Below are positions 2,148-62,929 of a stretch of DNA of 64,000 nt, piece after piece; position 1 is the stretch's first letter; every line of letters begins with the position of its first letter. The DNA is taken from the IMG/VR virus record IMGVR_UViG_3300021399_000117, positions 67,566 through 131,565 of that record; one strand, given 5' to 3'. This DNA is from a virus. Lineage: Duplodnaviria > Caudoviricetes. The position numbers were made by a program, and so were the translations under genes. The notes under the pieces were generated by a model. The model was not told the DNA's origin. It did not search any database and saw only the letters and a list, made by a program, of their open reading frames with translations.

Positions 2148-3668
2148 ATGAACCTAAGTAAGTACTTACAAAAGAACTGCTTCCAACCTATATCACGTGG
2201 TCCTATATACGAGAGTATTCGCAATAGAGACATTGAAAAAGCGCTGAACTCAGTGTCAGCTTTTTTGCGTAAGCGTGGTGTGTTCTTGATCCCGGCTGTC
2301 GAAGCTGTGGATATCGACGGCGCTACCAGTTTTGTCGTATACGGCTACAACAAAGATGGTATGGGGTGTGCATTCACATGGAAGCGTGGAGAGACGACCA
2401 GTCTATATTCTATTTGCTTCACTAAAGAGTTCGACCGCGCATACCTTGCACATACCTATGATGAGGCCTTCAAGTGGGATGTCGAACTCAAGCTCAAAGG
2501 AGCAAGCATCGTTCGTGCTATTCAGTTGGTCGCTGATGTGATGAATGGTCGCGTGAACATGGACAAGGCAGGTCTCAACCAAGCCGTTCGAGATGCTCAG
2601 ATCTGGGAATCTTTAGATGATGCTTGTGAAAACATCATCAAAGAGGATACATCCGATGCGGTCATCAAAAACCTGGAGCGTAAGAAAAATAATCTCTACC
2701 AACGAATCCACGACTGGAAATCCAAAGGTAAGGATACTTCCGATTTGGATAAAGAATACGAACTCGTCAAACAAGAACTGGCTGATGCTCGAGTATCTGT
2801 CCGCCAAGGAGTGGTGGTTGTGCCCATCAGTGATCCTGCAGTAGTAAAGATGGAACAAAGATTTGAGGAAGAAGAGAGGGCTACACCGGATGAGCGTTTC
2901 AGTGATATGGAGTCATACATCCTCAACGTGATTCTCGGTATTGACGTGTCAGCACTCATCTGTGGTGCACCAGGTGTTGGTAAGACATATCGTATCATGC
3001 AGATGATCAAGAAAGAAGGTAAAGTCCGTGGACGTGATTATGAAGTCATCAAAGGTAAGTGCACACCTATGGTGCTCTTCCAGATGCTTCATGACTACCA
3101 AAAGAAAGGTCAGTTGCTCGTTATCGATGACGCAGACGATATCATTACCGATGACGTATCTATCAACCTTATCAAAGCCGCCACAGACTCCAGTGACGAA
3201 CGTATCGTGTCCTACGGATCTAATGTCAAGATCTTCGTACCAGAAGAGAAGCAAGGTCTGTACACTGACTTCGAACAAGACTCACAAGGACGTTGGGTAT
3301 ATCCAAAGAACTTCGTTTATGAGGGAGGTATCATTATCATCACCAATATGAACGCGGGGCAGATTGATACAGCTATCCGTTCACGCGCAATGATTTGTGA
3401 TTTGAACTTCACTACTGGCGAGGTATTGGATTTGGTGGCACAACTATCTCCACACATAGCTCCGGAACTGTTGACACCAGCATCCAAAGAACGTGCACTC
3501 GACTATCTACGCAGATTAGCAGAGAGTGGGGCTCCGATGGAAATCTCTATCCGCTCCTTTATCTTGGTTTCCAAGTTGTATCTGAGTGATGCTCCTGCTG
3601 AAGCGATAGAGCGTCGTATTCGTGAGCAAATGAAATTGAAATTTTTGCGAGGGGGTAAGCGCTACTAA
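2148..3668 (+). CDS. AAA+ ATPase with N-terminal domain and leader variant (MNLSKYL...PIYES)
   Basis: Walker A GAPGVGKT, Walker B LVIDDAD, sensor IITN, arginine finger AIRSR. Confidence 0.85.
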   Translation: MNLSKYLQKNCFQPISRGPIYESIRNRDIEKALNSVSAFLRKRGVFLIPAVEAVDIDGATSFVVYGYNKDGMGCAFTWKRGETTSLYSICFTKEFDRAYLAHTYDEAFKWDVELKLKGASIVRAIQLVADVMNGRVNMDKAGLNQAVRDAQIWESLDDACENIIKEDTSDAVIKNLERKKNNLYQRIHDWKSKGKDTSDLDKEYELVKQELADARVSVRQGVVVVPISDPAVVKMEQRFEEEERATPDERFSDMESYILNVILGIDVSALICGAPGVGKTYRIMQMIKKEGKVRGRDYEVIKGKCTPMVLFQMLHDYQKKGQLLVIDDADDIITDDVSINLIKAATDSSDERIVSYGSNVKIFVPEEKQGLYTDFEQDSQGRWVYPKNFVYEGGIIIITNMNAGQIDTAIRSRAMICDLNFTTGEVLDLVAQLSPHIAPELLTPASKERALDYLRRLAESGAPMEISIRSFILVSKLYLSDAPAEAIERRIREQMKLKFLRGGKRY

Positions 3669-3689
3669 ATCAACTAGTTACAAATTTTT

Positions 3690-3717
3690 AAGAGGGTCTC
3701 AAAAAGATCCTCTTTTT
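3690..3717 (+). terminator. Intrinsic terminator
   Basis: AAGAGGGTCT-caaaa-AGATCCTCTT followed by a T run. Confidence 0.65.
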
Positions 3718-3773
3718 ATTTATAACTTCATTTGTTCTTTTTGTCATTTAATATATAAATCAAAATAAAATTT

Positions 3774-3813
3774 AGAGGAAATCACTAAAGATTTCCTCTT
3801 TTTTTATATATAT
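3774..3813 (+). promoter_or_regulatory. Class A promoter-hairpin cassette (short form)
   Basis: AGAGGAAATC-actaaa-GATTTCCTCT, T run, then TATATAT; motif recurs upstream of about 12 other non-structural genes. Confidence 0.7.
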
Positions 3814-3844
3814 CTATATGTAGAACATTATTTTGATCCTGCAT

Positions 3845-4480
3845 ATGGCAAATTATACTGACAAACAGAAAAACGAACTAACCAAGCAGTACGAACCACT
3901 AATCAACAAACTTACCGGCCAGTTTTATACAACCGTTCAGATGGATTGGGATAGCATCAAGTCCATGGCATACGAAGGATTTGCACTAGCACTCAACAAA
4001 TACGATGAGTCCAAGAGTAGCATGTCTTTTATGTCGTTCGCAGCGTTCGAGATGCGTAACAACATCATGACCAGACTCACGGAAGAGGCTCGCACAGTAA
4101 AACTACCTTTTGAGGAGCAGAAAAGGCGAAAGGAATCAGGAGAACCCTTATTCAACACCGTATCGATCGATCAGAGTGTTCGTGATGACGATGATATCAA
4201 ACCACGAGAGATCGTGATGGGTATGTACGAGACAGCCCGATTCGCTGACGGGGATGTCTTCAACTATCTTTACGAACGTCTAGAAGAAAAGTTTCCTCAA
4301 CGTGAATGCGACATGTTCTATATGTCATTCGGACTCAAAGGATTCGAAGAGACGCCGAATCAAGACATAGCAAAGAAATTCTGCGTCAGTGAAGGGTTGG
4401 TATCCCAAAAGAAACGTAAGATCCTCGATTGGATCAAAACCGATCAGGATCTGTGTGAGATGTTGTCTAACCTATCATAA
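3845..4480 (+). CDS. RNA polymerase sigma-70 family factor
   Basis: Region 2 (YEPLINKL...AYEGFALALNKYDESK..SFMSFAAFEMRNNI) and region 4 HTH (FGLKGFEETPNQDIAKKFCVSEGLVSQ); ATG at 3845. Confidence 0.85.
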   Translation: MANYTDKQKNELTKQYEPLINKLTGQFYTTVQMDWDSIKSMAYEGFALALNKYDESKSSMSFMSFAAFEMRNNIMTRLTEEARTVKLPFEEQKRRKESGEPLFNTVSIDQSVRDDDDIKPREIVMGMYETARFADGDVFNYLYERLEEKFPQRECDMFYMSFGLKGFEETPNQDIAKKFCVSEGLVSQKKRKILDWIKTDQDLCEMLSNLS

Positions 4481-4491
4481 ATCAATAAGTT

Positions 4492-5569: not shown

Positions 5570-5593
5570 AACTCTGTACGATTTTTTATATAT
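5566..5593 (+). promoter_or_regulatory. Class A promoter (no hairpin) for queD-queE-dpdA
   Basis: ATAAAA-N15-17-TATATAT. Confidence 0.45.
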
Positions 5594-5616
5594 TTATATG
5601 ATAATCCATTATATAT

Positions 5617-6210
5617 ATGCAAATCAGAAAAGAGTTTAGAGTAGAAAGCGCACACATAGTGCGAAACTGCACCTCCGAACGTTGTTCTCATTCGATTCAC
5701 GGACACAGTGCTGTGATTGAAGTCATCTTCGAAGGTCGTCAATTGGACAACGCTCAAATGCTCGTAGACTTCGGTTTGATGAAAGGCAGCATCAAGCAGT
5801 TTATCGATTCTATGGATCACTGCTATCTGCTCTGTTCACATGACAAACCTGAGTTCCGTGAGTTTATCAAAAAGAATTGCGATCGATACATTGAGTTGCC
5901 GTTCAATCCGAGCGCAGAGATGTTGTCTATGTTCATCATGATCGGTGTACAACGTATCTTGGACATGACCGAGTTCAATAACGGTGAAGAAACACCTGTA
6001 CGAGTAGCAAGTGTTCGTTATCATGAGACCACCACGGGTTATGCACAGTGTGATCTAACAGATTGTGTGAACTACGAAAACACCATCGATTTCGATTTCG
6101 TTGAGTTCTCTGACGGTGTCAAGAAAGACTGGTCACCGGAACTTCGTGAGGCTCTGGAACTAGGTCATCCTATTGTCAATCCAATCGTTGAACGTCAAAT
6201 TGATCTGTAA
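5617..6210 (+). CDS. queD: 6-carboxy-5,6,7,8-tetrahydropterin synthase QueD
   Basis: F..ESAHIVRNC.SERC.HSIHGHS, LVDFG, DH, NPSAE, VRYHETTT motifs; adjacent to queE. Confidence 0.9.
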   Translation: MQIRKEFRVESAHIVRNCTSERCSHSIHGHSAVIEVIFEGRQLDNAQMLVDFGLMKGSIKQFIDSMDHCYLLCSHDKPEFREFIKKNCDRYIELPFNPSAEMLSMFIMIGVQRILDMTEFNNGEETPVRVASVRYHETTTGYAQCDLTDCVNYENTIDFDFVEFSDGVKKDWSPELREALELGHPIVNPIVERQIDL

Positions 6211-6211
6211 T

Positions 6212-7030
6212 ATGCTGCCAGTAGTAGAAATGTTCACTAGTATTCAGGGGGAAGGAAAGTACGCCGGAATACCGAGTCACTTCGTAAGAGTGAGTGGTTG
6301 TAATCTTCGCTGTGTCTTTAAGGACAGCGTGTGTGACACACCATATTCCTCATTCAAGCCAGAAAAGCCTATCGCCAAAGACCTAGAGGAACTGGTGCGT
6401 CTATTCAAAGAACTCCAAGAGAAGTCTCCAAAGGTTAAACACCTGGTCATTACCGGGGGAGAACCCCTGATGTACGCGAAAGACCTGGATATGTTCCTCC
6501 GCCATATCTATGATGACGAGATGGTCATTACCATCGAAACCAACGGAACCTATCCGGTCCTGAATCCGCTGAGCCCGTACTTCAAGATCGCGCTCTATAG
6601 TGTATCTCCGAAACTCGCCACCAGCGTTGGTAAACCGGGTATGTACGGCAAGAACGGCAATATCGAAGTCACCCAGCAAATGGTAGACCGTCACAATCAA
6701 TTGAGGATCGATCCGCAGAACCTGGTAGACATTGTGATGAACGCCAATGACTATCAGTTCAAGTTCGTGTATAGCGGGCCTGAGTGTGTTGATGAGATTA
6801 TGGACATCTATTCACGAATGGGTGCTATTGCTGAGAAGTACGACCCGTTTATGGTCAGCTTCTATTTGAAGAACCACCCCAACAAACACACTATGTTGAT
6901 GCCAGAGGGTATTACCAATGAGCAACTCGCAGCCAAACGTCAAGAGATTGCAAATATTTGTATTCAACGGGGATGGACATACACCGATCGTATCCACATC
7001 ATTATCTGGGGAGATAAGAGAGGGGTGTAA
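6212..7030 (+). CDS. queE: 7-carboxy-7-deazaguanine synthase QueE (radical SAM)
   Basis: EMFTSIQGEG, GCNLRC..CDT, ITGGEP, IETNG, SVSPKL, RIHIIIWG; ATG at 6212. Confidence 0.92.
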   Translation: MLPVVEMFTSIQGEGKYAGIPSHFVRVSGCNLRCVFKDSVCDTPYSSFKPEKPIAKDLEELVRLFKELQEKSPKVKHLVITGGEPLMYAKDLDMFLRHIYDDEMVITIETNGTYPVLNPLSPYFKIALYSVSPKLATSVGKPGMYGKNGNIEVTQQMVDRHNQLRIDPQNLVDIVMNANDYQFKFVYSGPECVDEIMDIYSRMGAIAEKYDPFMVSFYLKNHPNKHTMLMPEGITNEQLAAKRQEIANICIQRGWTYTDRIHIIIWGDKRGV

Positions 7031-7101
7031 TGAATAAGAAGTATATGGACAATAGATTTAACTGTCCAAAGTGCGGCCATCAAGAAGAAATCACTGACTA
7101 A
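7030..7101 (+). CDS. 23-aa micro-ORF (MNKKYMDNRFNCPKCGHQEEITD)
   Basis: Its ATG overlaps the queE stop (TAATG) and its stop lies 1 nt before the next ATG; CPKCG knuckle; absent from the ORF track. Confidence 0.45.
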   Translation: MNKKYMDNRFNCPKCGHQEEITD

Positions 7102-7102
7102 C

Positions 7103-7930
7103 ATGAAAACAAACTGTGAATTACCATTATGCATGATGGACAAGAATTTGGAATTGAATGATTTCGATTTCGTTTTGTTCCATCTATATCAGTCTAACAA
7201 GACCTATCGCGAGTACTATCAGAAGATGAGAGTAGAACATCCGGAACGACTCATGATCCTGGACAACTCTGCGTACGAGTTCTTCGTCAAAGGAGAAAAA
7301 CTGGATATGCTCCAATTCAAAAATACCATCAAGGAACTCAAGCCGGATTACTACATCTTGCCAGATGTACTCCAAGACAAAGAGAAGACACTGCATGGTG
7401 TTCGGGAGTTCTTGACGTGTTATGCGGATAAAGACATGGTGTCCAAACCACTAGCTGTAGCACAAGGTAACACCAGTATAGAATTGGTAGAGTGTTTCCA
7501 AGAGTATCTCGGACTGGGTATCGAATATGTAGGAGTGCCATTTCACTTGGAGTTCTACAAGCACATGCATATAGAAGATGACATCCTGTTCGAGTTTGGA
7601 ACGTCTTATGGAGAGACAAAATTCACAGACGGTGAAGACTATAAGTACGCGATAGGTCGTGTTCAGTGGGTGCGTGGACATGAGGAACTGTTGAAACGGT
7701 TCGACAAAGTGCATATGCTCGGATCACATTGTCCGTTGGAGAAAGTATTTTACCACGACTTCTATTCTATGGACACTGGGTATCCAGTCAAATTAGGATA
7801 CGAGAAGACATTATTAGGATTCGAAGATCACAAACCCGCATCTATCATAGATGATTTCATTGATGCGGAGTTGTCTCGCACTAAGAAACACTGCATTGAG
7901 TCCAATGTCAAAACATTCCGAGATCTCTGA
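7103..7930 (+). CDS. TGT-fold transglycosylase, DpdA-like (probable DNA guanine/preQ0 exchange)
   Basis: ILDNSAYE, ILPDV, AVAQG, VHMLG, SMDTG motifs match the TGT/DpdA pattern; lies in the queD-queE operon. Confidence 0.7.
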   Translation: MKTNCELPLCMMDKNLELNDFDFVLFHLYQSNKTYREYYQKMRVEHPERLMILDNSAYEFFVKGEKLDMLQFKNTIKELKPDYYILPDVLQDKEKTLHGVREFLTCYADKDMVSKPLAVAQGNTSIELVECFQEYLGLGIEYVGVPFHLEFYKHMHIEDDILFEFGTSYGETKFTDGEDYKYAIGRVQWVRGHEELLKRFDKVHMLGSHCPLEKVFYHDFYSMDTGYPVKLGYEKTLLGFEDHKPASIIDDFIDAELSRTKKHCIESNVKTFRDL

Positions 7931-7937
7931 TTATTAT
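7931..7937 (+). promoter_or_regulatory. Class B (late-type) promoter motif TTATTAT
   Basis: TTATTAT 23 nt before the ATG; same motif precedes capsid, sheath and protease genes. Confidence 0.55.
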
Positions 7938-7960
7938 TGTAAAAAAAATATACATATAAT

Positions 7961-9439
7961 ATGAAGTCATTAAAGGATACGATATTGGAACAATTTGATT
8001 CGAAACCGACCCTAACCCATACAGGATTTCAAATTTTGCACCCATTGACTGAATATCTGCTTAATGAAGACAAATATGTCGGCTCTTCTGATCAAGCTAT
8101 ATATGCTCGGTTGGGAATGCACAAATATAATCACTTGCCCAAAAATAAACAAGAAGAGGTTAAACGGCATTTTCCTGGAGCTCCAGGTAATAAATCTGCT
8201 TTGGCCCGATGGTTCAAATCTGTCAATGGCAAATTAGTACCTAACCAATACGAGTTTATTGGGAGATCTGATTGGAACATGTTAGACCAGATCGGAGAAA
8301 TCGAAAATTCTTTAATGGCTCCCCACAAATGGTCATATTTTGAACTGATTCGGAAAAATCCTAGACCGAAGAAGAACAAGATACTTACTGTTTTGGAATG
8401 TTCCAATTCTAAACCATATTGTCAGGATTCTGCAAAAAAGTGGTACTTTAAACGGTTCAGATCGTTTACCGATTTTGCTTGCGGCGCGTATGGTATAGTA
8501 CCGGAAGAATATTCACAATTGTATCCGGTACGTGAGGATGAATGGGCACATAGCGATGAGTCGGAATCTGTAGCATTCAAATACAATTTGATTTCCTGTA
8601 ACCGTGGGTATCAATATATCAAAGATATGGGTTACGAGAAGGTGATTGTATTCTTCCAAAATCCTGCGCCAGAGGAGTTCATGCGATGGATGAAAAATAT
8701 GCCCGGCATGGAGGATAAACTGATCTTCGTCATTACTCCGCAATTAGTGGACAAACTTAAAAAACATTACCCTCAATTAGGTAACGGTCTAATCATCACA
8801 CGAATGATGATGCTCTCAGAGGTTCATGAGGCATATATGAATGCTTTAAGCAAGTGTTTGTCCGGTGAGGATCGAGAAAGGTTTAACGAGATCAAAAAAC
8901 TGGTCAATGACGAGGATAAAACTGGTCAAAAGAAGTGGATTGAGGATACCAACCAAAAATTCGGAATCGAGGAATACCGGGTAGACAGACCAGGCTGGGA
9001 GGTAAAACTTGCTAAAGGTGATATAAATATACACAGTCGTACATCAGATGTAACACAGAAAAAAGTCGATGAGATTTCTAATTGGATTTCGTCCTGGGTT
9101 GAAAAACAAAACGAAAAAGACATCAAAAAAGACAAGATAGACTGGTACAAAGAACGTCTGATATTTACCCCGCTAGATCTTATCATCGATCATTACGAAC
9201 TGGGAGAGAAGAATCCAAAAAAATTGGATATCGACGAGGAGTATTGGAACGTGATGGCTGCGCTAGAAAAACACGCTCAAGAATGGGGTATAAAAAGGGT
9301 CAACCCTGATAAGTATCACAGATATGATTATTTGTGGTGTTTCGAAAGGGTGTGCAAAGAGGTTAAAAAAGATGATATGATCGAATATTGCGACAAAACT
9401 GGCTTGTCCCAATTTTATCAAAATGTATTAGACAGATAA
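7961..9439 (+). CDS. ArcS/DUF5591-like (archaeosine synthase domain) protein with capsid-type leader
   Basis: VLECSNSKPY...YGIVPEEYSQLYP resembles the DUF5591 pattern PCSxxKPY...GxVPxE.YP; N-terminus MKSLKDTILE. Confidence 0.65.
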   Translation: MKSLKDTILEQFDSKPTLTHTGFQILHPLTEYLLNEDKYVGSSDQAIYARLGMHKYNHLPKNKQEEVKRHFPGAPGNKSALARWFKSVNGKLVPNQYEFIGRSDWNMLDQIGEIENSLMAPHKWSYFELIRKNPRPKKNKILTVLECSNSKPYCQDSAKKWYFKRFRSFTDFACGAYGIVPEEYSQLYPVREDEWAHSDESESVAFKYNLISCNRGYQYIKDMGYEKVIVFFQNPAPEEFMRWMKNMPGMEDKLIFVITPQLVDKLKKHYPQLGNGLIITRMMMLSEVHEAYMNALSKCLSGEDRERFNEIKKLVNDEDKTGQKKWIEDTNQKFGIEEYRVDRPGWEVKLAKGDINIHSRTSDVTQKKVDEISNWISSWVEKQNEKDIKKDKIDWYKERLIFTPLDLIIDHYELGEKNPKKLDIDEEYWNVMAALEKHAQEWGIKRVNPDKYHRYDYLWCFERVCKEVKKDDMIEYCDKTGLSQFYQNVLDR

Positions 9440-9993
9440 TGAGAAACCTTTACGAAAGCATATTAGATGACGAATTGGATGTCATGGCTAAAGGTGATAA
9501 GGGTGGAGAGCGTTTGCTTCATGCATATGACATGATGAAGATGTTGGTAGATCATCTGGATATCGTTCGCAAGGAGGGTGCTGATGACCCAACACAAACA
9601 TCATACAAGTGCCCACTGTACTTCAAATTCAGAAATGGATTGAATGATCCGTTCGGAACGGTTCGTAAGCGCCTCGCGGACTTCAAGAACGATATGAAGA
9701 AGTATCCTGAGTTCAAGATAAACATTCATACTACCAGCAAGAAGGAATCCATGACTACACCAGGTCAGAGACGGGAGTATGGCGTGGGTCTGATGTATAA
9801 TCTCATTAAGAGATACAATATCGCGATCGAAGAAGGCAAAAAGATGTTCGGTACTATCGATATCACAATCGAACAGTACGACTTCAACAAAGAACTACAC
9901 GCCTCTAAGATGAACATATATGTTATGGCAAGTGGGTTCGATTACAGAGACCTATACCGGGTTATACTAGACCAAATGGATAGCAAAAAATGA
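9439..9993 (+). CDS. Hypothetical protein with leader (MRNLYESILD)
   Basis: TAATG coupling at 9439; ESILD leader subtype. Confidence 0.75.
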   Translation: MRNLYESILDDELDVMAKGDKGGERLLHAYDMMKMLVDHLDIVRKEGADDPTQTSYKCPLYFKFRNGLNDPFGTVRKRLADFKNDMKKYPEFKINIHTTSKKESMTTPGQRREYGVGLMYNLIKRYNIAIEEGKKMFGTIDITIEQYDFNKELHASKMNIYVMASGFDYRDLYRVILDQMDSKK

Positions 9994-10002: not shown

Positions 10003-10323
10003 ATGAAAGGACTTTCAGAGACACTTAAGGAATCACTCGAAGTGAATGAAGCCAAGCAGGTGCTTGCAAATACGATTCAGTGGGAGGCAGATAAGGATGC
10101 AGCATACACCACTCTCGACGCAGCTGACGGCATCAAGAAGTTCAAGCATGCATTCCTTTCTTATAACCAATACGAAGGTGCCATCTTCGTAGTTGCGTTC
10201 AATTCAATCGAGGCTTACCAAGAGCTACTCGACACGGATGATGATGAGTACTCAGAACTCCTCAGTATGAAACCACAGGATACTAAGGTAATCAATAACG
10301 TATCCTATATCTGTCTAAAATAA
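10003..10323 (+). CDS. Hypothetical protein with leader; paralog of 32706..33008
   Basis: MKGLSETLKESLEVNEA; shares AAYTT.D, FLSY.QY, VAFN, LLDTDDD.YS.LL.MKPQ with the paralog. Confidence 0.75.
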   Translation: MKGLSETLKESLEVNEAKQVLANTIQWEADKDAAYTTLDAADGIKKFKHAFLSYNQYEGAIFVVAFNSIEAYQELLDTDDDEYSELLSMKPQDTKVINNVSYICLK

Positions 10324-10499: not shown

Positions 10500-10534
10500 G
10501 GAGTCAATAAAGATTGGCTCCTTTTCTTATATAT
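10500..10534 (+). promoter_or_regulatory. Class A promoter-hairpin (may also terminate the upstream operon)
   Basis: GGAGTCAAT-aaag-ATTGGCTCC, T run, then TATAT; ATAAA spans the loop. Confidence 0.55.
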
Positions 10535-10560
10535 TATGATATACACAAAACTAATTAGAC

Positions 10561-11541: not shown

Positions 11542-12150
11542 ATGAAAAATTTAAGCGACTGCATTAAAGAATCGATCAACGAAAGTTCTAATAAAATGAC
11601 AGCCATTTGGTCCCACGAAGATCCGGATACTATATATTTTATCAAAAATATGTCCAGAGACCAATACAAGCGCCTTCGGAATACAGATTGGAACTGGGAC
11701 GACATTGATGTAAAAGAGCCTATCGCATTCTGCGGACACAATGACGAATCAATTCGAATAACTGGCGTTGCTGCATCTAATTTGGTTGGTCTCAAAAAAT
11801 TGATCTCCAAAGACATCGCACAAAACATTCAGGAGATGATCGATGCTGGAGAAGTGTACGATGAAGTTATATTCTATTCACTGGACGAGGACGAATGGAG
11901 CCTCAAAGATTTTCGCGATGCTAAAGAGGTTGAAGATCTTAAGAAGATCAACCCAGATCGTGCTGCTGAAAAATGGTTGAAAGGCCTAGAAGACACCGAG
12001 GTGGACGGAGATAGTTCACGCGCATACTATTTTGTAGATCTCAGAAAAGGTGAACAGATCGCTGGTAGCGAACATATAAGTGTTGTGTTTGCTGACCTTG
12101 AAGAAGATGAAGATATACGTCATAGCATCCTTGGGTATGACGAAGACTAA
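11542..12150 (+). CDS. Acidic hypothetical protein with leader (MKNLSDCIKESINES)
   Basis: ATG at 11542; TTATTGT variant motif at 11518-11524. Confidence 0.75.
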   Translation: MKNLSDCIKESINESSNKMTAIWSHEDPDTIYFIKNMSRDQYKRLRNTDWNWDDIDVKEPIAFCGHNDESIRITGVAASNLVGLKKLISKDIAQNIQEMIDAGEVYDEVIFYSLDEDEWSLKDFRDAKEVEDLKKINPDRAAEKWLKGLEDTEVDGDSSRAYYFVDLRKGEQIAGSEHISVVFADLEEDEDIRHSILGYDED

Positions 12151-17595: not shown

Positions 17596-17638
17596 AGAGG
17601 AAATCACTAAAAGATTTCCTCTTTTTTCTTATATATAT
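17596..17638 (+). promoter_or_regulatory. Class A promoter-hairpin cassette (short form)
   Basis: AGAGGAAATC-actaaaa-GATTTCCTCT, T run, then TATATAT. Confidence 0.7.
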
Positions 17639-17659
17639 ACAACACAGAAATTAAAGTAT

Positions 17660-22373: not shown

Positions 22374-22685
22374 TTACCATTTATATCCAAGGTATGCTCC
22401 GACAGCAGTCAGTACCATGCGTGAAGTGAGTAATGAACCCAGTGTAGAACGGGTATCTATGCCTAAAGCCTTGCAAACAGCCTCCATGATAGACTTACCA
22501 GCAGTACCACCTATGACTCCGCCAACGATGCTAGACAACAGTCCCTCATCTATGAGTTCAGCAACTGGCTTGCCTTCTGCCTGAGCTTTTTGTGATACTT
22601 CAATAATATAGTCTTTAAGAGTATTGGTATGCTCTTTAATCATGTTCTGATATTGAACGTCTTGGATTTCTTGAATAGAGTTCAT
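22374..22685 (-). CDS. Glycine-zipper membrane protein
   Basis: LIDE-GLLSSIVGGVIGGTAG...LTAVGAYLG; TTATTAT at 22707-22713 (minus). Confidence 0.7.
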   Translation of the reverse strand: MNSIQEIQDVQYQNMIKEHTNTLKDYIIEVSQKAQAEGKPVAELIDEGLLSSIVGGVIGGTAGKSIMEAVCKALGIDTRSTLGSLLTSRMVLTAVGAYLGYKW

Positions 22686-50229: not shown

Positions 50230-50243
50230 TGAAAACATAAAAC

Positions 50244-50270
50244 GAAAGAGGTGTGCACACCTCTTTCTTT
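50244..50270 (+). terminator. Intrinsic terminator
   Basis: GAAAGAGGTG-tgca-CACCTCTTTC-TTT. Confidence 0.7.
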
Positions 50271-50364
50271 GTCTTTTATACCCATAGCATCTCATTTTAT
50301 TTTGGGGTGCGGGGTACTTATTATAATTTATAAGAAAACTGAAATATAAATAAACGTATACAAA

Positions 50365-53151
50365 ATGAGTTTACCTAATTATTTAGCCAAGATAAAATCG
50401 TCTGGTATTTACCGCTTTGTATGGGACAAATCTCAAGTCACTGCTACCGAAGCAGAGACCTTGCGTCTTGTTGTAGGTTACTCTGAAAAGGGTCCTTTCA
50501 ATACTCCGGTATATATTGATAATCCAGGTGATTTTAAGACTACATTTGGTGACGTAAACAAGAAGTTGGAGAAACGTGGTGTGTTCTTCCATCGCATGGC
50601 TCTTCAGGCGCTTGCGGGAGGTCCTATACTCGCACTCAATATTAAAAAGTTCGGTAACGAACAGGTTGAGTATGTTGGTGGTAATGCTAGTGCCGCGTTC
50701 GACAATCCTGCAAAAGCCGCAGTAGAAAAGGTGTTCAACACCTCTCGCTTCTGGACGTTGGATCCTGATAGTCTACCAAGCAACCTTGGAACAGAGTACG
50801 GTAAGTATATCACTATCACATCCACCGACTCAAAAGATTCTTCAAATACCATATTCATGCGTGGTTACACTCCTTCTGGTTACGATGTAACTATCAAAAC
50901 CTGGTACTCAAGTAACACCAATGAAGAGATGCCAGCATACATGGAAGGATACGAAGATATGCTTTTGAGTGATTTCTTCGCTGAAATCTTTGTGTTCAAA
51001 GGCAAATTCACTCCTGCACTCGCTAAAACCGAGGAGCTCAAGAAATACTTTGACGTGATTGATGGTAAGGTAACATTAAAACCTTATCTGGTTAACGCTT
51101 TCGGTGAGAAAGTGGATACCCTTACCGCTCTTTCTGAAAATGAATGCAGCAACTTCGTTCAACGCTATCAAGGTATATTGATCCCTTACTTCAAAAACAT
51201 CAATGGGGCATACATTTCATTGGATCTATTGTTCAATGCAGACAATGATCTCCATAAAATGATGATGAAGCTCAACAGCGACTTCTTGGATGATGGAGGT
51301 TACTATGCAAGTGCTGCAGCTACTGACTTGACCCCATTCACCATGAAAGATATCACTACTCGCGGTTATGATAAGTTGACCGTGGATGATATTGCTAACG
51401 CAATCAAAGTGGCTGCTGGTGAGACTACCGAATACGCGTCACGTATCGACTTCATGAGCAACACCGCTATCATTCCTCACGTAGTAGTAGGTTCATACGG
51501 TACTGCTTGGTCATTCGTAGGTGACGACTATGTTACCACTCCAGACTTATACGTATACAATGCCAAGACTGCTGTGACAGCTGAAGGTGGTGTGTTCACA
51601 CTTGGTGTGGAGTTCAAAGATGCTGGACTAGCAGAGGGCGATCGTATCCTGGTTAAGGTGCCTGTTGATGAGAACAATTTCGCAGTCAAACTCGTTACCA
51701 TATCAGAAGTAATCGACGGTGCCGATAATGTCAAGATCGCTACAACCGACGAGAACGCTGAGCCTATCGTGATCACTTCACAGGTCGTTCCTCATGCAGA
51801 TGGTAAAGTATGTATCGCTGTCGACTGTGGAGATGTCAGTGAAGCCGTTGCAAATGCACTTGTATTGGATGGTGTTGCTGGTACTGCTGCTGGTGATTAT
51901 CGTTACTGGCTGGTGGAGCCTGCAGACGAAGTAACCATCACTGGTGATGCAGAATACCAAGCTACCATATCAGCGAATACAGATCATGCTATCAAGTATA
52001 CCGACAAAACAGATACCGATCTGCCTGTTATTGAACAAGACACAACAGTCATCGTTAAGGCTACACATATCCTAACCGAGGACATTGCTACGATGAGTCC
52101 ATTGTATCTCGAAGGTTATACCAAGGAGAACGAGAAACCTGCTAACAGTACCGTTGAGGCTAAGTTGAAATGGCAGAAGGAACACATCCTCGCAGCTATC
52201 AACACAGACAGCTCAATCGGCTACCCAGGATTGGTAGAGGCGTTGACAAACCGCAAAGATATCGATTACCGCTACATCGTGGATACATTCGAGTCATTCA
52301 TTGACGCTGAATTGAAGGCATCTCTTGCATTGCTCGCTAAGAAGAAAGACAACGCGGTACTGTTGACTAACTTCCCAGCTATCCAAACCTTTGTTAAGTC
52401 TACAGCATGTAAGTTCACAGATAAGAACGGTGCGTTCCAAATGAAGTATGTGAAAGAGGGTGGTAACCGTCAAAAAGGTGCAGCATTCTTCAGCCTGCCA
52501 TCCACCGACAACGGTGCATCCTGGTGTTCATTCAATACTCCGGTAGTATTCTCAGATGGTGTAGTAAAGACAACAGTTCCTGCTGCTGCGCTCGTTTCCA
52601 ACGACTTCATGGCAAAATACAGTGGACGCAAACCATACTATATTGTAGCTGGACCTAACTACGGACGTTTGTCATATCCAGGATTGGTTGGACCTGATTA
52701 CAACTTCAGCCTCGCTGATTTGAATATTCTCGAGCCAATGGGTGTGAACGCAACAGTATTCGTTCTACGTAAGGGTACGTTCATCAACAGCAACCAGACT
52801 GCTAAACAAACACCTGTTTCAGCATTGTCTAAACTTAATGTTCGAGAGTTGGTTATCTACTTGCAAGACCAAATCGAAGACTTGTTGCAGAATTACCAAT
52901 GGGAACTCAATACACAACCTCTCCGTGATCTTGTTAAGGCTAAAGCCGATACGATATGCCAGAACGTCAAAGCGAACGGTGGTATCTACGACTTTAACAA
53001 CCAGTGCGATGACAAGAACAATAACGAAGACGTCATCAACAACGAAATGTTCGTATTGAGCACAAGCATCGAACCTGGTATGGGTAGTGGAAAGATGGTT
53101 CAAGAGTTGACTATCTACAAGAAAGGTGGAATGCGTGCTGTTATCTATTAA
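50365..53151 (+). CDS. Contractile tail sheath protein
   Basis: SGIYRF..DKS, VGYSEKGPFNTPV, VPAAA..VAG, LNVREL, CDDKNN..VI; TTATTAT at 50318-50324. Confidence 0.9.
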   Translation: MSLPNYLAKIKSSGIYRFVWDKSQVTATEAETLRLVVGYSEKGPFNTPVYIDNPGDFKTTFGDVNKKLEKRGVFFHRMALQALAGGPILALNIKKFGNEQVEYVGGNASAAFDNPAKAAVEKVFNTSRFWTLDPDSLPSNLGTEYGKYITITSTDSKDSSNTIFMRGYTPSGYDVTIKTWYSSNTNEEMPAYMEGYEDMLLSDFFAEIFVFKGKFTPALAKTEELKKYFDVIDGKVTLKPYLVNAFGEKVDTLTALSENECSNFVQRYQGILIPYFKNINGAYISLDLLFNADNDLHKMMMKLNSDFLDDGGYYASAAATDLTPFTMKDITTRGYDKLTVDDIANAIKVAAGETTEYASRIDFMSNTAIIPHVVVGSYGTAWSFVGDDYVTTPDLYVYNAKTAVTAEGGVFTLGVEFKDAGLAEGDRILVKVPVDENNFAVKLVTISEVIDGADNVKIATTDENAEPIVITSQVVPHADGKVCIAVDCGDVSEAVANALVLDGVAGTAAGDYRYWLVEPADEVTITGDAEYQATISANTDHAIKYTDKTDTDLPVIEQDTTVIVKATHILTEDIATMSPLYLEGYTKENEKPANSTVEAKLKWQKEHILAAINTDSSIGYPGLVEALTNRKDIDYRYIVDTFESFIDAELKASLALLAKKKDNAVLLTNFPAIQTFVKSTACKFTDKNGAFQMKYVKEGGNRQKGAAFFSLPSTDNGASWCSFNTPVVFSDGVVKTTVPAAALVSNDFMAKYSGRKPYYIVAGPNYGRLSYPGLVGPDYNFSLADLNILEPMGVNATVFVLRKGTFINSNQTAKQTPVSALSKLNVRELVIYLQDQIEDLLQNYQWELNTQPLRDLVKAKADTICQNVKANGGIYDFNNQCDDKNNNEDVINNEMFVLSTSIEPGMGSGKMVQELTIYKKGGMRAVIY

Positions 53152-53272: not shown

Positions 53273-53866
53273 ATGGAGATAAGAAAAGCAGCTGTGTTCT
53301 ACATTGAAGAGATTTCATCCAAACATAAAGCAGCACTGCGACAGCTACGTAAACTAGAAAATCGTTATGTTTTCTCATCTAATAGATGGAAGGCTGTGCA
53401 AATGGAGACTGAAGGTGAGTCATTCGGATCGGAAGAGAATAAAGCGCTTCGTACTAAGGTGTACGATGAGTTCGCTGCAGCTAAGTCCGCTTATCTGAAT
53501 CTCAAAAATCAGATAGAACAATACGAACTCTGGCTAGGTAACCACATCTATATGAATCGTCACGGATACACAGACATGCATCCTTATGAGGTGATACGTA
53601 TCGATACTCCGAAAAAGATGATTATTCGAGAAATGCTTGCGACAGAAACAGAAGAATCCAAGAAAAGACGTAAGGAAACTTTTGTGCCCACAGGATTTCT
53701 CGGAATCTCGGACAACGATGTTCAGGAATGGGATATTCGTTCACAAGACATATCCGATTTCGACTTCGCAGTACGCTTGCACGGTGACGGTTTCTGGTAC
53801 GATGCCAATGGTAATCGGTATACCATGTCCGACAAACCTATTAAGTTTTACGATTTTAATTTTTAA
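53273..53866 (+). CDS. Hypothetical protein
   Basis: 197 aa; YTDMHPYEVI...YDFNF pattern. Confidence 0.7.
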   Translation: MEIRKAAVFYIEEISSKHKAALRQLRKLENRYVFSSNRWKAVQMETEGESFGSEENKALRTKVYDEFAAAKSAYLNLKNQIEQYELWLGNHIYMNRHGYTDMHPYEVIRIDTPKKMIIREMLATETEESKKRRKETFVPTGFLGISDNDVQEWDIRSQDISDFDFAVRLHGDGFWYDANGNRYTMSDKPIKFYDFNF

Positions 53867-53870
53867 TCCT

Positions 53871-54416
53871 ATGCATCCAGTAACCATTTTAGACAAACAG
53901 TTCGAGCAATTCATTACACAGGATCAGATCACCACTGAGATACTCCGAATAACCACAGAGCTTCAGCACAAGTATCTTGTTGAGAAAGTGCCAGTATTCA
54001 TTGTGGTGACCAATGGTGCCATGCGATTTGCGTCAGACATACTTGGGCATTACAATGGCGTCTGTGAGGTGCGTTGTATCCGATTGTCCTCATACAATGG
54101 CGGTACAGAATCATCAGGTACCGTAAAAACAGTCTTCGGACTGGATGACAGTCTAAAAGAACGAGACGTGATAATCGTTGAAGACATCATCGACTCCGGC
54201 AAGACCATTCATGAACTGCGAGAGCAGCTGATAGAACTGGGTGTAGGAAGTATAGAAGTATGCACTGCATTATTTAAACCGGATGCCTGTGAGTACGATG
54301 ACGCCTATCCTGATTATTGGGGATTCGTTGTTGACAACCTCTTTGTAGTAGGATATGGGATGGACTACAAAGAACGAGGACGCAATCTAAATGGTATTTG
54401 GAAACTGAAAGCATAA
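53871..54416 (+). CDS. hpt: Hypoxanthine-guanine phosphoribosyltransferase
   Basis: SSYNG.T.SSG, IIVEDIIDSGKT, FVVGYGMDY..RGRNL; ATG at 53871. Confidence 0.92.
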   Translation: MHPVTILDKQFEQFITQDQITTEILRITTELQHKYLVEKVPVFIVVTNGAMRFASDILGHYNGVCEVRCIRLSSYNGGTESSGTVKTVFGLDDSLKERDVIIVEDIIDSGKTIHELREQLIELGVGSIEVCTALFKPDACEYDDAYPDYWGFVVDNLFVVGYGMDYKERGRNLNGIWKLKA

Positions 54417-56555: not shown

Positions 56556-58277
56556 ATGATTCTAACAGAAAACGCACAAAAATGGTCTAGCATCATTAGT
56601 GAGTCTCTTCACATAGAGAATAAGTCAAAATTGGCTTGGATGTCTCAATATGCTGCTAACCACGAGATGTTCGAGGCTGTTCAAGCAGGCGACCCTGCAG
56701 CTGGTATCTACAGCACTCCTCTTAACACGCTCGGTATGGGCAACCCACAAATGCCGGAACCTGCCAACGGTTTCCAAAAAGGTTCAGGTATCGGCATCGG
56801 CGCAACTGATTTCCATAATCAGAAAGTAGGTTCAGGTGATATTCCTATGTCAACTTTGACAATGTCTCTTGAAATCGCTGCTATGACAATCGGTTTGGAA
56901 CTCGTCCCAGTTATTCCTGCAAGTGGTCCTTGGGCAATGCTATCATATATGGACTTCCCATATGCCGGTGGTAAGCTCGGTAAACTCAACGAGACTTCTC
57001 TCGACGGTAAGGGTAAAGATGACGCTAACAAACCTATCTACATCCGTATCATTACAGATCGCGCTGTTCAGAGAAACGCTAAGTCTCTTGCAGAAGGTGC
57101 AGCAGTTGTTGTAACCGGTGCAGACAGCAAGACATTGAACGCAACTTACATCGGAAGCTCACGTCTTGACAACTCTATCATCGTTAAGGTGGTTGACTGC
57201 GGAGACGAAAACACTTCTATCGCAGACGTATTTGAGCAGACAGGTTTGACTATCAAGTTGGGTACCGGCGACGCAACCAGCGTAACAGCAGCTCGTCCAG
57301 AGTTCGTAAGCGGTGCAGCTGACCACGTTCAAGGTTTCGCTAACTTCGCTACCGGATCTAAGGATCCTATGAGCCGTGCAGAGAACGAAACCGGTGTTGG
57401 TAACACAATCGGCGCTCGTATGTTCACCCGTCTCGTACAAATGGGTGCTTACGAAGTAACTGGTTCCGTAACTCGTCAACAGCTACAGGATATGCCACTC
57501 TACGGAGTAGACGTTATCGGTAAGGTTCTCGAGGCAATGCAGAACGAGATCTCACAACACATTAACAACCGTATCTTGGACCGCGTATTCAAACTTGGTG
57601 TTGAGAACGCAAAGACCCAATACGATTACCAGGGTGTTGACTTGAACCTCTTCTTCGGTGCAACCAACACAGCAACTAAGAACTTGAGCGACTTCACTGC
57701 AGCTAAGTATCTTGTTGACTTGAATGGCGTATCTGCAGCTGATGCAACAGGTTGGGCAAATGGTTGGGTTGTTAAGAACGCAACTTTGAACACTGCAGCT
57801 GAGAACACTCATACTCATCAACGTCGTATCATGAGCCGCGCTCTTGCCGCTGCTAACTTGATCGCAAACGTATCTCGTTTCGGACGTGGCCAATGGTTGG
57901 TAACCAACACTCAAGTCCTCTCAGCTCTTCAAGACTGCGCCGGCTTCGTTGTTGCTCCTATGACCAACACCTTGACACAAGATGGATCTAACAGCTTGTA
58001 CTTCGCAGGTACTCTTGCAGGTCTTCAAGTATACGTTGATCCTTACATGACTTGGGATGACTGCCGTATCTGCGTAGGACGTAAGTCAGATGGTAACACT
58101 CCTGGTGTAATCTTCATGCCGTACATCCTTGCCGACACCGTTCAAACCGTTGTTGAAGGTACAATGGCTCCTAAGTTGCTTGTAAACAGCCGATTCCAAA
58201 TTGTTGACGCCGGTTTCCACCCAGACCAGAACTATTTCACATTCGCAGTAGATGCCGACGGTGCATACTTCCTCTAA
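56556..58277 (+). CDS. Major capsid protein (T4 gp23-like)
   Basis: IGLELVPVIP..GP, QQLQD..YGVD, EISQHIN..I, RFGRGQWLV, FAGTL...VYVDPY, IFMPYI; strongly biased codon usage. Confidence 0.9.
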   Translation: MILTENAQKWSSIISESLHIENKSKLAWMSQYAANHEMFEAVQAGDPAAGIYSTPLNTLGMGNPQMPEPANGFQKGSGIGIGATDFHNQKVGSGDIPMSTLTMSLEIAAMTIGLELVPVIPASGPWAMLSYMDFPYAGGKLGKLNETSLDGKGKDDANKPIYIRIITDRAVQRNAKSLAEGAAVVVTGADSKTLNATYIGSSRLDNSIIVKVVDCGDENTSIADVFEQTGLTIKLGTGDATSVTAARPEFVSGAADHVQGFANFATGSKDPMSRAENETGVGNTIGARMFTRLVQMGAYEVTGSVTRQQLQDMPLYGVDVIGKVLEAMQNEISQHINNRILDRVFKLGVENAKTQYDYQGVDLNLFFGATNTATKNLSDFTAAKYLVDLNGVSAADATGWANGWVVKNATLNTAAENTHTHQRRIMSRALAAANLIANVSRFGRGQWLVTNTQVLSALQDCAGFVVAPMTNTLTQDGSNSLYFAGTLAGLQVYVDPYMTWDDCRICVGRKSDGNTPGVIFMPYILADTVQTVVEGTMAPKLLVNSRFQIVDAGFHPDQNYFTFAVDADGAYFL

Positions 58278-60137: not shown

Positions 60138-60140
60138 GTT

Positions 60141-60618: not shown

Positions 60619-60662
60619 AGGGGATTTCTTTCTAAAGATTTCCTCTTTTTTCATATATATAT
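60619..60662 (+). promoter_or_regulatory. Class A promoter (degenerate hairpin)
   Basis: CTAAA-GATTTCCTCTTTTTTCA-TATAT (17-nt spacer). Confidence 0.65.
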
Positions 60663-60683
60663 ATTCATATTAGAAAATAGACT

Positions 60684-61172: not shown

Positions 61173-61192
61173 AAGAAAATCGCGCAAAAAAC

Positions 61193-61218
61193 AAGGGTTA
61201 CTCATTGAGCAACCCTTT
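61193..61218. terminator. Terminator hairpin between convergent genes
   Basis: AAGGGTTACTCA/TGAGCAACCCTT. Confidence 0.6.
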
Positions 61219-61237
61219 AAATTTTGAATCATGATTA

Positions 61238-61939
61238 TTAGAACGCTGTCCAAATACCTTTTTCAGGATCCCACCACTGGTTGTTGTCATTGGAATAAAT
61301 GAAATGAACTTCATCGTCTCCCGCAGCCTTACAAGTCTTTGAAATGAAGTTAGCCGCAGTCACCTTGTATCCGTTTCCAAGGAGTGCGTGAACAGCCTTG
61401 TCGACATACTTCTTATCGAAGTCTTTGTTGTGTTTGAGAATGTCTTCGACGAGTGTTTCCAGTTCGGTATCTGATAGTGTGTCAAGATCCAAACGTTCAT
61501 CTGGAGTTTTCTCTAATGCCTCATACAAGAACTCAGTCAAGCTCTTCATATGGAAACTCTCCTTGACTTTGGTAAGCTCGCGGAGTTTGTACATACAAGA
61601 ATCGATAAGACTTACCACGTCATCCAGGTCGCTTTCGAGTTCAGGGACTTCATTCAGTAGTTTACGACCAGAGTCACAAACAGAGTGGAGCTCTTCCAGA
61701 TACTTCAATGCATCGTATTCGTCAGCATCGAGTACGTTCTTATAGTCGCCGACCTTCTGTTTGTTATGTCCCATGAAGTCTTCAATGAGCTTGTCGACCT
61801 TCTCAGGCATCTCTTTGTAGAACTCATCCAGGATGACATGAACGTCATGATTATCGGCTTTGAGGTGTTTACGCCATTCGGCTACCACACTCTGTTGAAG
61901 AGTTCCGAATAGTTCTTCTATTGATTTTATTGCTGCCAT
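61238..61939 (-). CDS. Ferritin/Dps-like (DUF5856-like) domain fused via an internal leader to a second domain
   Basis: WRKHL...HVILDEFY..M...D.LIE.FMG...YKL; internal MKSLTEFLYEA at 61549. Confidence 0.65.
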   Translation of the reverse strand: MAAIKSIEELFGTLQQSVVAEWRKHLKADNHDVHVILDEFYKEMPEKVDKLIEDFMGHNKQKVGDYKNVLDADEYDALKYLEELHSVCDSGRKLLNEVPELESDLDDVVSLIDSCMYKLRELTKVKESFHMKSLTEFLYEALEKTPDERLDLDTLSDTELETLVEDILKHNKDFDKKYVDKAVHALLGNGYKVTAANFISKTCKAAGDDEVHFIYSNDNNQWWDPEKGIWTAF

Positions 61940-61955
61940 GTTGTATTAGCGTTTA

Positions 61956-62609
61956 TTAAAGGATATATGTCTTGTTATCAAAGAATCCAATGATATGGGT
62001 TCCGTCACTTAGGTTAGCTACGCACCAGTTATTACCATAGATGTTAACGGATTCATTCATTGCCTTAGCCATGGCAAAAGGATTGTCGTTAGCGCAAGCA
62101 GCCACTTCCATGTAATCACCATGACGGGAAAGGAAACGACCGTTTTGTGGAATGGTGCTTTCACTGGTTATAAAAGAGGCTGTGGATACAGCGCTGCAGC
62201 AGTCGGGACATGCATTTATACATGCACCTTCTTTGCCTTCTTCTGGACCTTTGCGTTCCTCGATAGGCTTGAGTATATAAACATTATCTCCGTTCAGTAC
62301 ATCATAGGTACCTACCAGATTATACCGGATCATGAAGTCACCAAAACTCCAATACCCTGAATGTCTGAAGTTGACCCCACCGTACATAGACGAATAGATG
62401 AACTGGTCAAACTTGTGGGGATCAGAGATGATATGTCCAGTGACAACGATACGTCCGTCATCGAGATGAGACATATGAGTGTCTGTCGCTGCACCGAAGG
62501 TATTGTTGTATGCACGGCATATAGGGCATTGTTCCGGTATTGCTCGAGCAATTGGTGTATAATGGAATGCTGCAACGCCTTTGGCAATAAGTTGACTAAA
62601 TTTGTCCAT
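61956..62609 (-). CDS. Hypothetical protein
   Basis: 217-aa ORF in the minus-strand operon. Confidence 0.7.
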   Translation of the reverse strand: MDKFSQLIAKGVAAFHYTPIARAIPEQCPICRAYNNTFGAATDTHMSHLDDGRIVVTGHIISDPHKFDQFIYSSMYGGVNFRHSGYWSFGDFMIRYNLVGTYDVLNGDNVYILKPIEERKGPEEGKEGACINACPDCCSAVSTASFITSESTIPQNGRFLSRHGDYMEVAACANDNPFAMAKAMNESVNIYGNNWCVANLSDGTHIIGFFDNKTYIL

Positions 62610-62626
62610 GTGTTACAATCGTTTAA

Positions 62627-62929
62627 TTATGCGCCGAATGACTTGTTGAGCATACCAACGAGCTCACCCCATTCACCAGCTTCTACAAGATCCTTGTTGT
62701 CGTTAAGAAGACCATCGATAGTATCTTTCATCTTCTTTTCGTCGAGTTCGTCACCGAACACCTCTTTGAACTTGTTTTCAGCGTAATCGCGGAAAGTCTT
62801 TTCGTCTTTGATAGATTCAGTGGCTTTATCATCTTTTTCAGCCTCATTGATCTTATCCTCGAGCTCTTTAAGTTTTGCCTCATCAGCCTCATTCAAGTTC
62901 TCGTATAAGAAATCTGTAATGTTTTGCAT
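62627..62929 (-). CDS. Acidic hypothetical protein with leader (MQNITDFLYENLNEA)
   Basis: Leader variant. Confidence 0.7.
   Translation of the reverse strand: MQNITDFLYENLNEADEAKLKELEDKINEAEKDDKATESIKDEKTFRDYAENKFKEVFGDELDEKKMKDTIDGLLNDNKDLVEAGEWGELVGMLNKSFGA

Follow-up and report, generated by a model that had tools for sequence, protein, structure and literature searches.

A shared N-terminal leader on about 30 otherwise unrelated proteins of an uncultured T4-related phage, and its likeness to capsid-targeting sequences

The leader and the genes that carry it

The stretch of DNA considered here (the window) is the final 64 kb of a 131,565-bp IMG/VR virus contig (IMGVR_UViG_3300021399_000117, or G000; completeness estimate 62%), and contig coordinates are obtained by adding 67,565 to the window coordinates that are used below unless G000 is named. 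It belongs to a phage of the T4 superfamily with a contractile tail (sheath gene at 50365-53151). The closest cultured relatives, all distant, are the Tenacibaculum phages PTm1, PTm5 and pT24, Sphingomonas phage PAU, Chryseobacterium phage MA9V-1 and the Prevotella Lak phages; when the head region was compared by megablast with 50,697 phage records, nothing matched. The host is probably a member of the Bacteroidota, to judge from these relatives and from the near-absence of Shine-Dalgarno-like sequences in the A/T-rich regions upstream of genes. Our subject is one short peptide, of about ten residues, that is common to the N-termini of otherwise unrelated proteins of this phage, and that we refer to as the leader.

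A preliminary description of the window had listed 22 leader starts. All 22 are ATG codons followed by the N-termini that were quoted, and the core M-[KRQ]-[STNGQ]-[LI]-x-[EDQ..]-x-[ILV] is found in 20 of them; the start at 2148 (M-N-L-S-K-Y...) does not fit, and that at 19846 has a short form only. Two in-frame internal copies, at 20200 (-) and 61549 (-), had been missed, and seven further copies lie upstream of the window (G000 18894+, 26086-, 36439+, 53921-, 64431-, 65483- and 66030-). Most leaders (class 2) end in [I/L/V]-x-E-[S/A/N/G], often with a second site, [I/L/V]-N-E-[A/S] or I-F-E-[G/R], 4-8 residues further on. The six class 1 leaders of G000 read M-K-x-L-[Y/F]-E-S-I-L-D-[D/N/S]-E, with Asp10 invariant, and their proteins are loosely alike over about 15 further residues. 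The ending in L/I-x-Glu plus a small residue is absent from class 1, and also from 30957, 32706 and 22367. The genes concerned are as follows; TTATTAT is a putative promoter motif, and G001 is a complete relative of 197.5 kb.

7961-9439 (+): leader protein, 492 residues, class 2; weak DUF5591 (ArcS-like) match, 24.8 bits against a cut-off of 26; TTATTAT 30 nt upstream
9439-9993 (+): leader protein, 184 residues, class 1 (Asp10); start overlaps the preceding stop (TAATG)
10003-10323 (+): leader protein, 106 residues; second site V-N-E-A; paralogue of 32706
11542-12150 (+): leader protein, 202 residues; second site I-N-E-S; TTATTGT upstream
14069-15136 (+): leader protein, 355 residues; second site P-I-F-E-G; TTATTAT 14 nt upstream; closest clusters in the ESM Atlas: viral DUF6267
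15133-15978 (+): leader protein, 281 residues; start translationally coupled (ATGA); match to NTP_transf_2 weak and below the cut-off (E = 0.011)
15978-17525 (+): leader protein, 515 residues; second site P-I-F-E-R; no family found
18812-19225 (-): leader protein, 137 residues; second site L-N-E-A; top matrix score
19244-19846 (-): short form M-Q-S-I-N-E-A, in which the N-terminus is the second (I-N-E-A) site only; membership uncertain
19865-20404 (-): N-terminal DUF3008 domain, then an in-frame internal full leader from 20200; fusion conserved in G001
21235-21987 (-): leader protein, 250 residues
22002-22367 (-): leader protein, 121 residues; class-1-like (E-S-I-L-G), residue 10 not acidic
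22749-23315 (-): leader protein, 188 residues, class 1; TTATTAT 13 nt upstream
23411-23845 (-): leader protein, 144 residues; second site T-N-E-A; 98% identical in G001
30957-31532 (+): HAD/polynucleotide-kinase-phosphatase-like protein, 191 residues (phrog_415 at 4.7e-11); partial leader, first 8 residues only
31529-31738 (+): leader protein, 69 residues; second site V-N-E-A; absent from G001 (cassette replaced)
31751-32302 (+): leader protein, 183 residues; absent from G001 (cassette replaced)
32312-32692 (+): leader protein, 126 residues; 96% identical in G001
32706-33008 (+): leader protein, 100 residues, without Glu10; paralogue of 10003
33091-33627 (+): leader protein, 178 residues; adjoins the head module; TTATTAT 31 nt upstream
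40271-40699 (+): nucleoside diphosphate kinase (NDK; PF00334 at 8e-21) with the leader as N-terminal add-on; last gene of the head operon
61238-61939 (-): DUF5856 domain, in-frame internal full leader from 61549, and 103-residue C-terminal module; fusion conserved in G001
62627-62929 (-): leader protein, 100 residues, M-Q-N-I variant; second site L-N-E-A
2148-3668 (+): non-member, leader does not fit; phrog_1250, function unknown

Could such a motif arise by chance, or mark the paralogues of a single gene family? A strict form of it (M-[KRQI]-[STNGQ]-[LI]-x-[EDQSN]-x-[ILVM]-x-[ED]) matches 22 ATG starts in the contig, against 0-1 per shuffle in 20 shuffles. A position matrix puts 29 contig starts over 12 bits and leaves the interval from 4 to 12 bits empty, a separation that is partly circular, the same starts having been the training set. 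The same matrix applied to G001 finds 30 starts above 12 bits, and among ten shuffles of that genome one had a maximum of 10.7 and the other nine reached at most 5.3; about 13 of the G001 leader starts, judged by an overlapping set of regular expressions, are on proteins without a homologue in G000. The preliminary description had held the tagged proteins to be unrelated, and indeed BLASTP after removal of the first 20 residues finds a single related pair among 28 (10003 and 32706). That pair, and the further loose resemblance among class 1 members, are what might be said for chance or simple paralogy, but with 26 of the 28 proteins lacking detectable similarity beyond the leader, and different Pfam families attached to it, we give such an origin almost no credence.

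The proteins that carry the leader mostly belong to no recognized family: a PHROGs search gave none for the majority of them, and PDB sequence searches with 14069, 15133 and 15978 (and with 37315 and 38757) gave nothing usable. Pfam families found above the cut-offs among tagged proteins are NDK, DUF3008, DUF5856 and Amidohydro_2, with HAD and DUF5591 below. The suggestion that many of the cargos are enzymes is only weakly borne out: the NDK is firmly identified, and the HAD/polynucleotide kinase (PNK)-phosphatase-like protein and an amidohydrolase encoded outside the window are identified with moderate strength, as are the DUF3008 and DUF5856 fusions, but DUF5591 and NTP_transf_2 are weak. 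In the NDK the leader is an addition, for the NDK domain begins at residue 19, its active-site His region is conserved, and length changes among relatives fall directly after the leader.

In two proteins the leader is internal, behind another domain. Apart from these two-module fusions a polyprotein architecture is absent, and internal [I/L/V]-N-E-[A/S] joints are not enriched. At 61549 (-), the 20 nt upstream of the internal leader Met include AAGGAG at Shine-Dalgarno-like spacing, conserved in G001, in a phage where such sequences are otherwise rare; an internal start yielding the tagged C-terminal module alone is possible. The ESM Atlas version of the 14069 protein begins only at residue 9, read as Met, and public automatic gene calls may therefore clip leaders and hide tag families from protein-level surveys.

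Two neighbouring loci may be mentioned. The tagged DUF5591-like gene at 7961, with its own TTATTAT, comes after the QueD-like and QueE-like (radical SAM, PF04055, 47.5 bits) genes, at 5617-7030, of a 7-deazaguanine DNA-modification cluster. At 30406-30960 a cytidylyltransferase/NMNAT-like gene (PF01467, 25.7 bits), itself without a leader, heads a TTATTAT unit that runs into six leader genes.

Head genes and promoter motifs

Many tagged genes stand close to the genes for the phage head, or share with them a motif in the upstream region. The features in question are listed here.

22707-22713 (-): TTATTAT, heading the unit 22685 to 18812 with five to six leader genes; a late-type example
33635-35245 (+): head-module protein, K/E-rich, whose N-end is hydrophobic and rich in Gly; immediately 5' of the protease gene, and itself preceded by TTATTAT
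35316-35322 (+): TTATTAT, 41 nt upstream of the protease gene; same motif before the sheath (50318), fibre (47784-), 36868 and 33635 genes
35357-36784 (+): prohead protease, gp21/Peptidase_S77 family, with His and Ser motifs and a C-terminal extension of about 280 residues; the proposed processing enzyme
36089-36267 (+): 36-bp tandem repeat, five copies, coding for the 12-residue repeats of the protease extension
56556-58277 (+): gp23-type major capsid protein (phrog_138 at 2.4e-19); tblastn matches annotated 'precursor of major head subunit'
5570-5616, 10510-10560, 17600-17659 and 60630-60683: examples of the class-A motif

A gp21-like protease had been recognized at 35357, rightly as it proved: the protein scores 34.3 bits with Peptidase_S77 (PF03420; cut-off 27) and 28.9 bits with S80, matches phrog_207 at 2.5e-37, and is 28% identical to T4 gp21 over 109 residues in BLASTP (E = 3e-5), with the catalytic L-G-E-L-x-H-P and S-S-R motifs aligned. 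Its extension of some 280 residues, absent from T4 gp21, contains a coiled-coil stretch and 12-residue repeats (of the type Q-K-W-V-V-E-Q-Y-S-P-E-V), present in 7-11 copies in relatives and with a hydrophobic-x-E site in every copy; the repeats might serve for docking or for self-cleavage. The gene directly 3' of the protease gene in more distant relatives is that for the capsid protein, and for this reason the extension may, speculatively, be a scaffold; the protein as a whole resembles a fusion of protease and scaffold like that of herpesvirus UL26.

A candidate maturation site in the capsid protein is a conserved [M/V/I]-[F/Y/H]-E-[A/G] at about residue 40, followed directly by a linker of variable length; in the T4 record gp23 reads L-T-E|A at residues 63-66, in agreement with its 65-residue propeptide (PMC9026906). 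Just after the putative site in our phage comes a conserved T-P-L-N-T-L-G-M-G-N-P. A 62-residue leader protein (G000 53733-53921, -) has the closely similar T-P-G-N-T-P-G-M-G-N-P, and might mimic the capsid N-arm or be a piece of it. The product of 33635 (536 residues, extremely rich in K, E and D) shares a Gly-rich hydrophobic segment (of the type G-A-G-I-G-G-L-L) with that of another late gene, 22374-22685 (-), and the two could be internal head proteins or membrane-active ejection proteins; in the 33635 homologues of the relatives L004 and L010 a leader precedes the hydrophobic segment. Two large late genes outside the window (G000 49561-51195 and 7030-8649, both -) have TTATTAT upstream and no full leader, but their products contain hydrophobic-N-E-A in the first 25 residues and may be further protease substrates; one of them has an ATP-grasp/RimK-like match (phrog_2599 at 1.9e-8).

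Of all 7-mers within 70 nt upstream of genes, TTATTAT shows the strongest enrichment (26 genes, 2.3 expected). It is found 13-57 nt before the genes for the protease, sheath, fibre and capsid protein, before 36868, 33635 and other structural genes, and before several leader genes, and from the company that it keeps we infer that it is a late promoter. A second motif (class A) consists of a T-run, then a C/T-ATATAT-type sequence with ATAC. It is found across the contig ahead of some 15 non-structural genes, frequently accompanied by (A/C)ACTAAA at roughly 50-60 nt from the start, and probably represents an early or middle class. The preliminary description had placed the leaders only in TTATTAT-type units and none behind class A, and this held: when genes were assigned to units by the nearest upstream motif, 18 leader genes fell in TTATTAT or TTATTGT units and none among the 45 genes of class-A units (Fisher p = 2.7e-4). 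With two uncalled genes added, four of the five leader genes left unassigned trace to TTATTAT by direct reading (the block 22685 to 18812, and contig 66030 to 63988).

Exchange of leader genes among relatives

In G001 the protease is 95% identical to that of our phage, and DNA identity in the head region is about 85-90%. The set of leader genes nevertheless varies strongly between these close relatives: 9 of 19 have no tblastn match anywhere in the complete G001, as against 17 of 141 other called genes (Fisher p = 6e-4). Upstream of its head module G001 has an extra 120-residue leader gene, two leader genes that replace two of ours, and an extra 171-residue leader gene. The 120-residue insertion is flanked by ATGAAAAG(T/C)CTA, which is the first four leader codons. 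In the two-gene replacement the left junction comes directly after the first five leader codons, and the right junction a few nucleotides before the next leader ATG; in the third event (the 171-residue gene) the break is not in a leader. Tagged genes are exchangeable cassettes, gained, lost or replaced by recombination in the first leader codons.

Similar leaders occur in other relatives. Matches to a DNA pattern for the leader, with those in a reversed control, number 27 and 0 in G001, 35 and 0 in G004, 14 and 0 in G006, and 10 and 1 in G005, G002 and G003 having fewer. The consensus of the more distant relatives departs slightly from ours (E-S-L-F-D in G004, for example). Residues 1-40 of a class-1 protein, searched by words against 5.8 billion proteins, returned only two near-identical proteins, the tag being too short for the tool. 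The exact back-translated class-1 pattern matched only two other IMG/VR contigs, and that form is therefore clade-restricted.

Might the leader then be a feature of DNA or mRNA with no function as a peptide, either a linker for recombination or a context for translation initiation in a host without Shine-Dalgarno pairing? The cassette junctions between G000 and L002, which fall in the first 12-15 nt of the leader, would suit the former, and the A/T-rich upstream regions with few Shine-Dalgarno-like sequences, together with the frequency of AAA as second codon, the latter. However, Ser3 is encoded both by AGT/AGC and by TCA/TCT, and Leu4 by TTA, TTG and CTN; and residues 6, 8 and 10 are conserved while their synonymous codons vary freely. 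Since the codons for residues 3 and 4 come from unrelated families, conservation is at the peptide level, and selection is on the peptide and not on the DNA. The most highly expressed late genes (those for capsid and sheath) have no leader, and initiation context would be irrelevant to the two in-frame internal copies unless there are internal starts. An origin in DNA or mRNA is therefore very unlikely, and both the codon data and the leaderless late genes contradict the preliminary description's own alternative, that of an AT-rich start-codon context.

A capsid-targeting reading and its place among known systems

What, then, does the peptide do? The leaders are amphipathic, with a helical hydrophobic moment of 0.41, compared with 0.29 for other N-termini (p = 1.6e-4), and N-E sites are concentrated near them (8 in the first 25 residues across 24 leader proteins, 4 across 127 other proteins). 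The closest known counterparts are in T4. In the T4 record, ipII and ipIII begin M-K-T-Y-Q-E-F-I-A-E|A, gp24 begins M-A-K-I-N-E-L-L-R-E|S, gp67 M-E-G-L-I-E-A-I and gp22 M-L-K-E-Q-L-I-A-E-A; all of these except gp22 share with the leader a hydrophobic residue 4, Glu6 and a hydrophobic residue 8, and ipII, ipIII and gp24 also have Glu10 followed by a small residue. The leader agrees with the T4 capsid-targeting sequence (CTS) at residues 1, 2, 3, 6, 8 and 10. When the matrix built from G000 was applied to 587 ATG open reading frame (ORF) starts in 72 kb of T4, ipIII came second and ipII third (8.0 bits); the sole higher score belonged to an unannotated ORF on the strand opposite alt, nudE gave 5.7 at an internal ATG, and gp67 was the next true start. 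For packaging in T4 the N-terminal 10 residues of IPIII are enough, with 4 and 7 concerned in targeting and 8 and 10 in processing; Asp at position 10 stops processing but not targeting, and gp21 cleaves after L/I-x-E (PMC9026906). All the T4 internal head proteins bind to the core through the CTS (PMC5694885), and among the diverse internal proteins of T-even phages it is the CTS alone that is conserved (PMC3012670).

We consider it probable, at roughly two chances in three, that the leader is a capsid-targeting sequence and propeptide of the T4 type, greatly expanded, so as to be present on about 30 late proteins per genome. This is favoured by the motif itself, the S77 protease, the gp23-type capsid, the promoter motif shared with head genes, the likeness to T4 propeptides and the turnover of the cargos. 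The amphipathic peptide would dock late, unrelated proteins to the core that scaffolds prohead assembly; the protease of the gp21 family would cut after [I/L/V]-x-Glu10, and often a second time at a nearby [I/L/V]-N-E-[A/S] or I-F-E-G; and the mature proteins would stay inside the head with the DNA, to be ejected with it into the host. By the T4 rule for residue 10, class 2 proteins would be both targeted and cut, and those of the Asp10 subclass (E-S-I-L-D-D-E) targeted and left uncut at that position. One copy each of the 24 leader proteins of at least 60 residues would sum to about 590 kDa, and at a few tens of copies apiece the total would be similar in order of magnitude to the mass of internal protein reported for T4 and SPN3US (PMC5694885).

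Several points weigh against the capsid-targeting reading. The score by which the T4 internal proteins were detected is modest (8 bits), and residue 4 is Leu in our phage and Tyr or Phe in those proteins. Class 1 has the Asp10 that blocks processing in T4, there is no acidic residue 10 in 30957, 32706 or 22367, and the two internal leaders, behind another domain, are without T4 precedent. The cargos are not basic like IPII and IPIII, their median isoelectric point (6.0) being the same as that of other proteins, and we know of no rationale for packaging an NDK. The promoter classes and the assignment of operons rest on crude motif rules. Lastly, the cultured relatives PTm1, PAU and pT24 are distant, and have only 2-4 pattern matches each, on unannotated small proteins.

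If proteins are brought to the prohead core in this way, they need not be delivered to a host. They might serve only in assembly, as core or scaffold accessories or in size determination or DNA modification, and then be degraded or expelled like T4 gp22, gp67 and gp68. The N-terminus of gp67, a core protein that is degraded, does resemble the leader; several leader proteins are small and acidic and lack an assigned function; and the protease extension and the K/E-rich 33635 protein point to a complex core. But assembly factors are normally conserved, and half of the leader genes differ between phages with 95%-identical proteases; NDK and HAD-like cargos are unlike scaffold parts; and hydrophobic-N-E-small sites past residue 25 are no denser in leader proteins (0.42 per 1000 residues) than in others (0.48), so that leader proteins do not seem built for chopping up. 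We think a role confined to assembly unlikely.

Alternatively the peptide might dock to something other than a capsid: a modifying enzyme (as do the leaders of ribosomally synthesized and post-translationally modified peptides), a chaperone, a late multi-enzyme complex, another protein shell or an export route. Amphipathic N-terminal helices are also known as the encapsulation peptides of bacterial microcompartments (BMCs), and the NDK and the phosphatase-like protein are metabolic enzymes. Against this, the BMC shell protein PF00936 had no match in G000, G001 or G004 (controls were positive), and a search for radical SAM proteins (PF04055) found only the QueE-like gene at 6293-6556 in the deazaguanine cluster, with no modifying enzyme linked to tagged genes. 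Unlike a signal peptide, the leader is not hydrophobic; most copies end in the cleavage pattern predicted for the phage's own head protease, and there is a match to the head propeptides of T4; and leader genes adjoin head genes and share their promoter motif. Docking outside the capsid is accordingly quite unlikely.

Returning to the capsid-targeting reading, a wider picture can be sketched, though one that we offer as tentative. The phage would represent a clade of uncultured, large, T4-related phages, probably infecting Bacteroidota, that keep a plug-and-play library of capsid cargo: about one gene in eight would be addressed to the head by a ten-residue tag, the first codons of the tag would act as recombination joints, the Glu10 and Asp10 classes would correspond to two fates within the head, and cargos that handle nucleotides and RNA, such as the NDK and the HAD/PNK-phosphatase-like and nucleotidyltransferase-like proteins would be delivered ready-made to the next host. 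The leader-to-leader cassette junctions suggest a route by which such repertoires diversify. Textbooks give the T4 CTS as the example of a phage head that delivers proteins, but its known natural cargos are few. If about 30 fast-changing proteins per genome do carry an equivalent tag, the mechanism would prove to be old, to occur broadly across the T4 superfamily and to operate on a far larger scale; the tag could serve as a sequence-only marker for injected host-takeover and anti-defence proteins, mostly unannotated, in metagenomic phages; and a second natural CTS would be available for engineering protein-loaded phage heads.

How does this arrangement compare with known systems? BMC encapsulation peptides and the cargo-loading peptides of encapsulins are short amphipathic peptides that direct unrelated enzymes into a protein shell. 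The leader likewise is a short amphipathic peptide on unrelated proteins, but in most copies it ends in a putative protease site, and the sole shell encoded here is the phage capsid.

Giant phages of the phiKZ type (phiKZ, 201phi2-1, SPN3US) have at least 19 head-internal proteins that are cut C-terminal to Glu by gp175/gp245 (Peptidase_S80), and their propeptides, with multiple redundant sites, are inferred to target the prohead (PMC9026906, PMC5694885). Our phage resembles them in having many proteins with putative propeptides, a gp21-related protease and (by prediction) cleavage after Glu. However, the propeptides of the phiKZ-like phages are mostly longer than 100 residues, with no one shared short motif and with S/A-x-E sites, whereas here the tag has 10 residues and a hydrophobic P3. 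An S80 propeptide system of this type was considered and rejected, given the shared ten-residue tag, the hydrophobic P3 and the better score of the protease with S77 than with S80.

The T4 CTS system, finally, has in common with the present one a peptide of about ten residues at the N-termini of unrelated proteins, an S77 protease and a gp23-type capsid (PMC9026906, PMC3012670, PMC5694885). Within the peptide the shared features are M-K-[S/T], Glu6, often an aromatic residue 7, Ile or Leu at 8 and, in class 2, Glu10 and a small residue 11, and in both systems the cargo sets are diverse and change fast while the tag is conserved. There are also differences. The present system, known from sequence alone, has Leu rather than Tyr or Phe at residue 4, a frequent second [I/L/V]-N-E-[A/S] site, an Asp10 subclass and two internal copies. 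Its cargos include an NDK and enzyme-like proteins and are not basic, and many of the tagged genes lie in coupled operons beside head genes. As the preliminary description had anticipated, the repertoire far exceeds the few internal proteins of T4, with about 30 tagged proteins per genome by sequence in place of a handful, and in the searchable literature we found no account of a tag family expanded this far.

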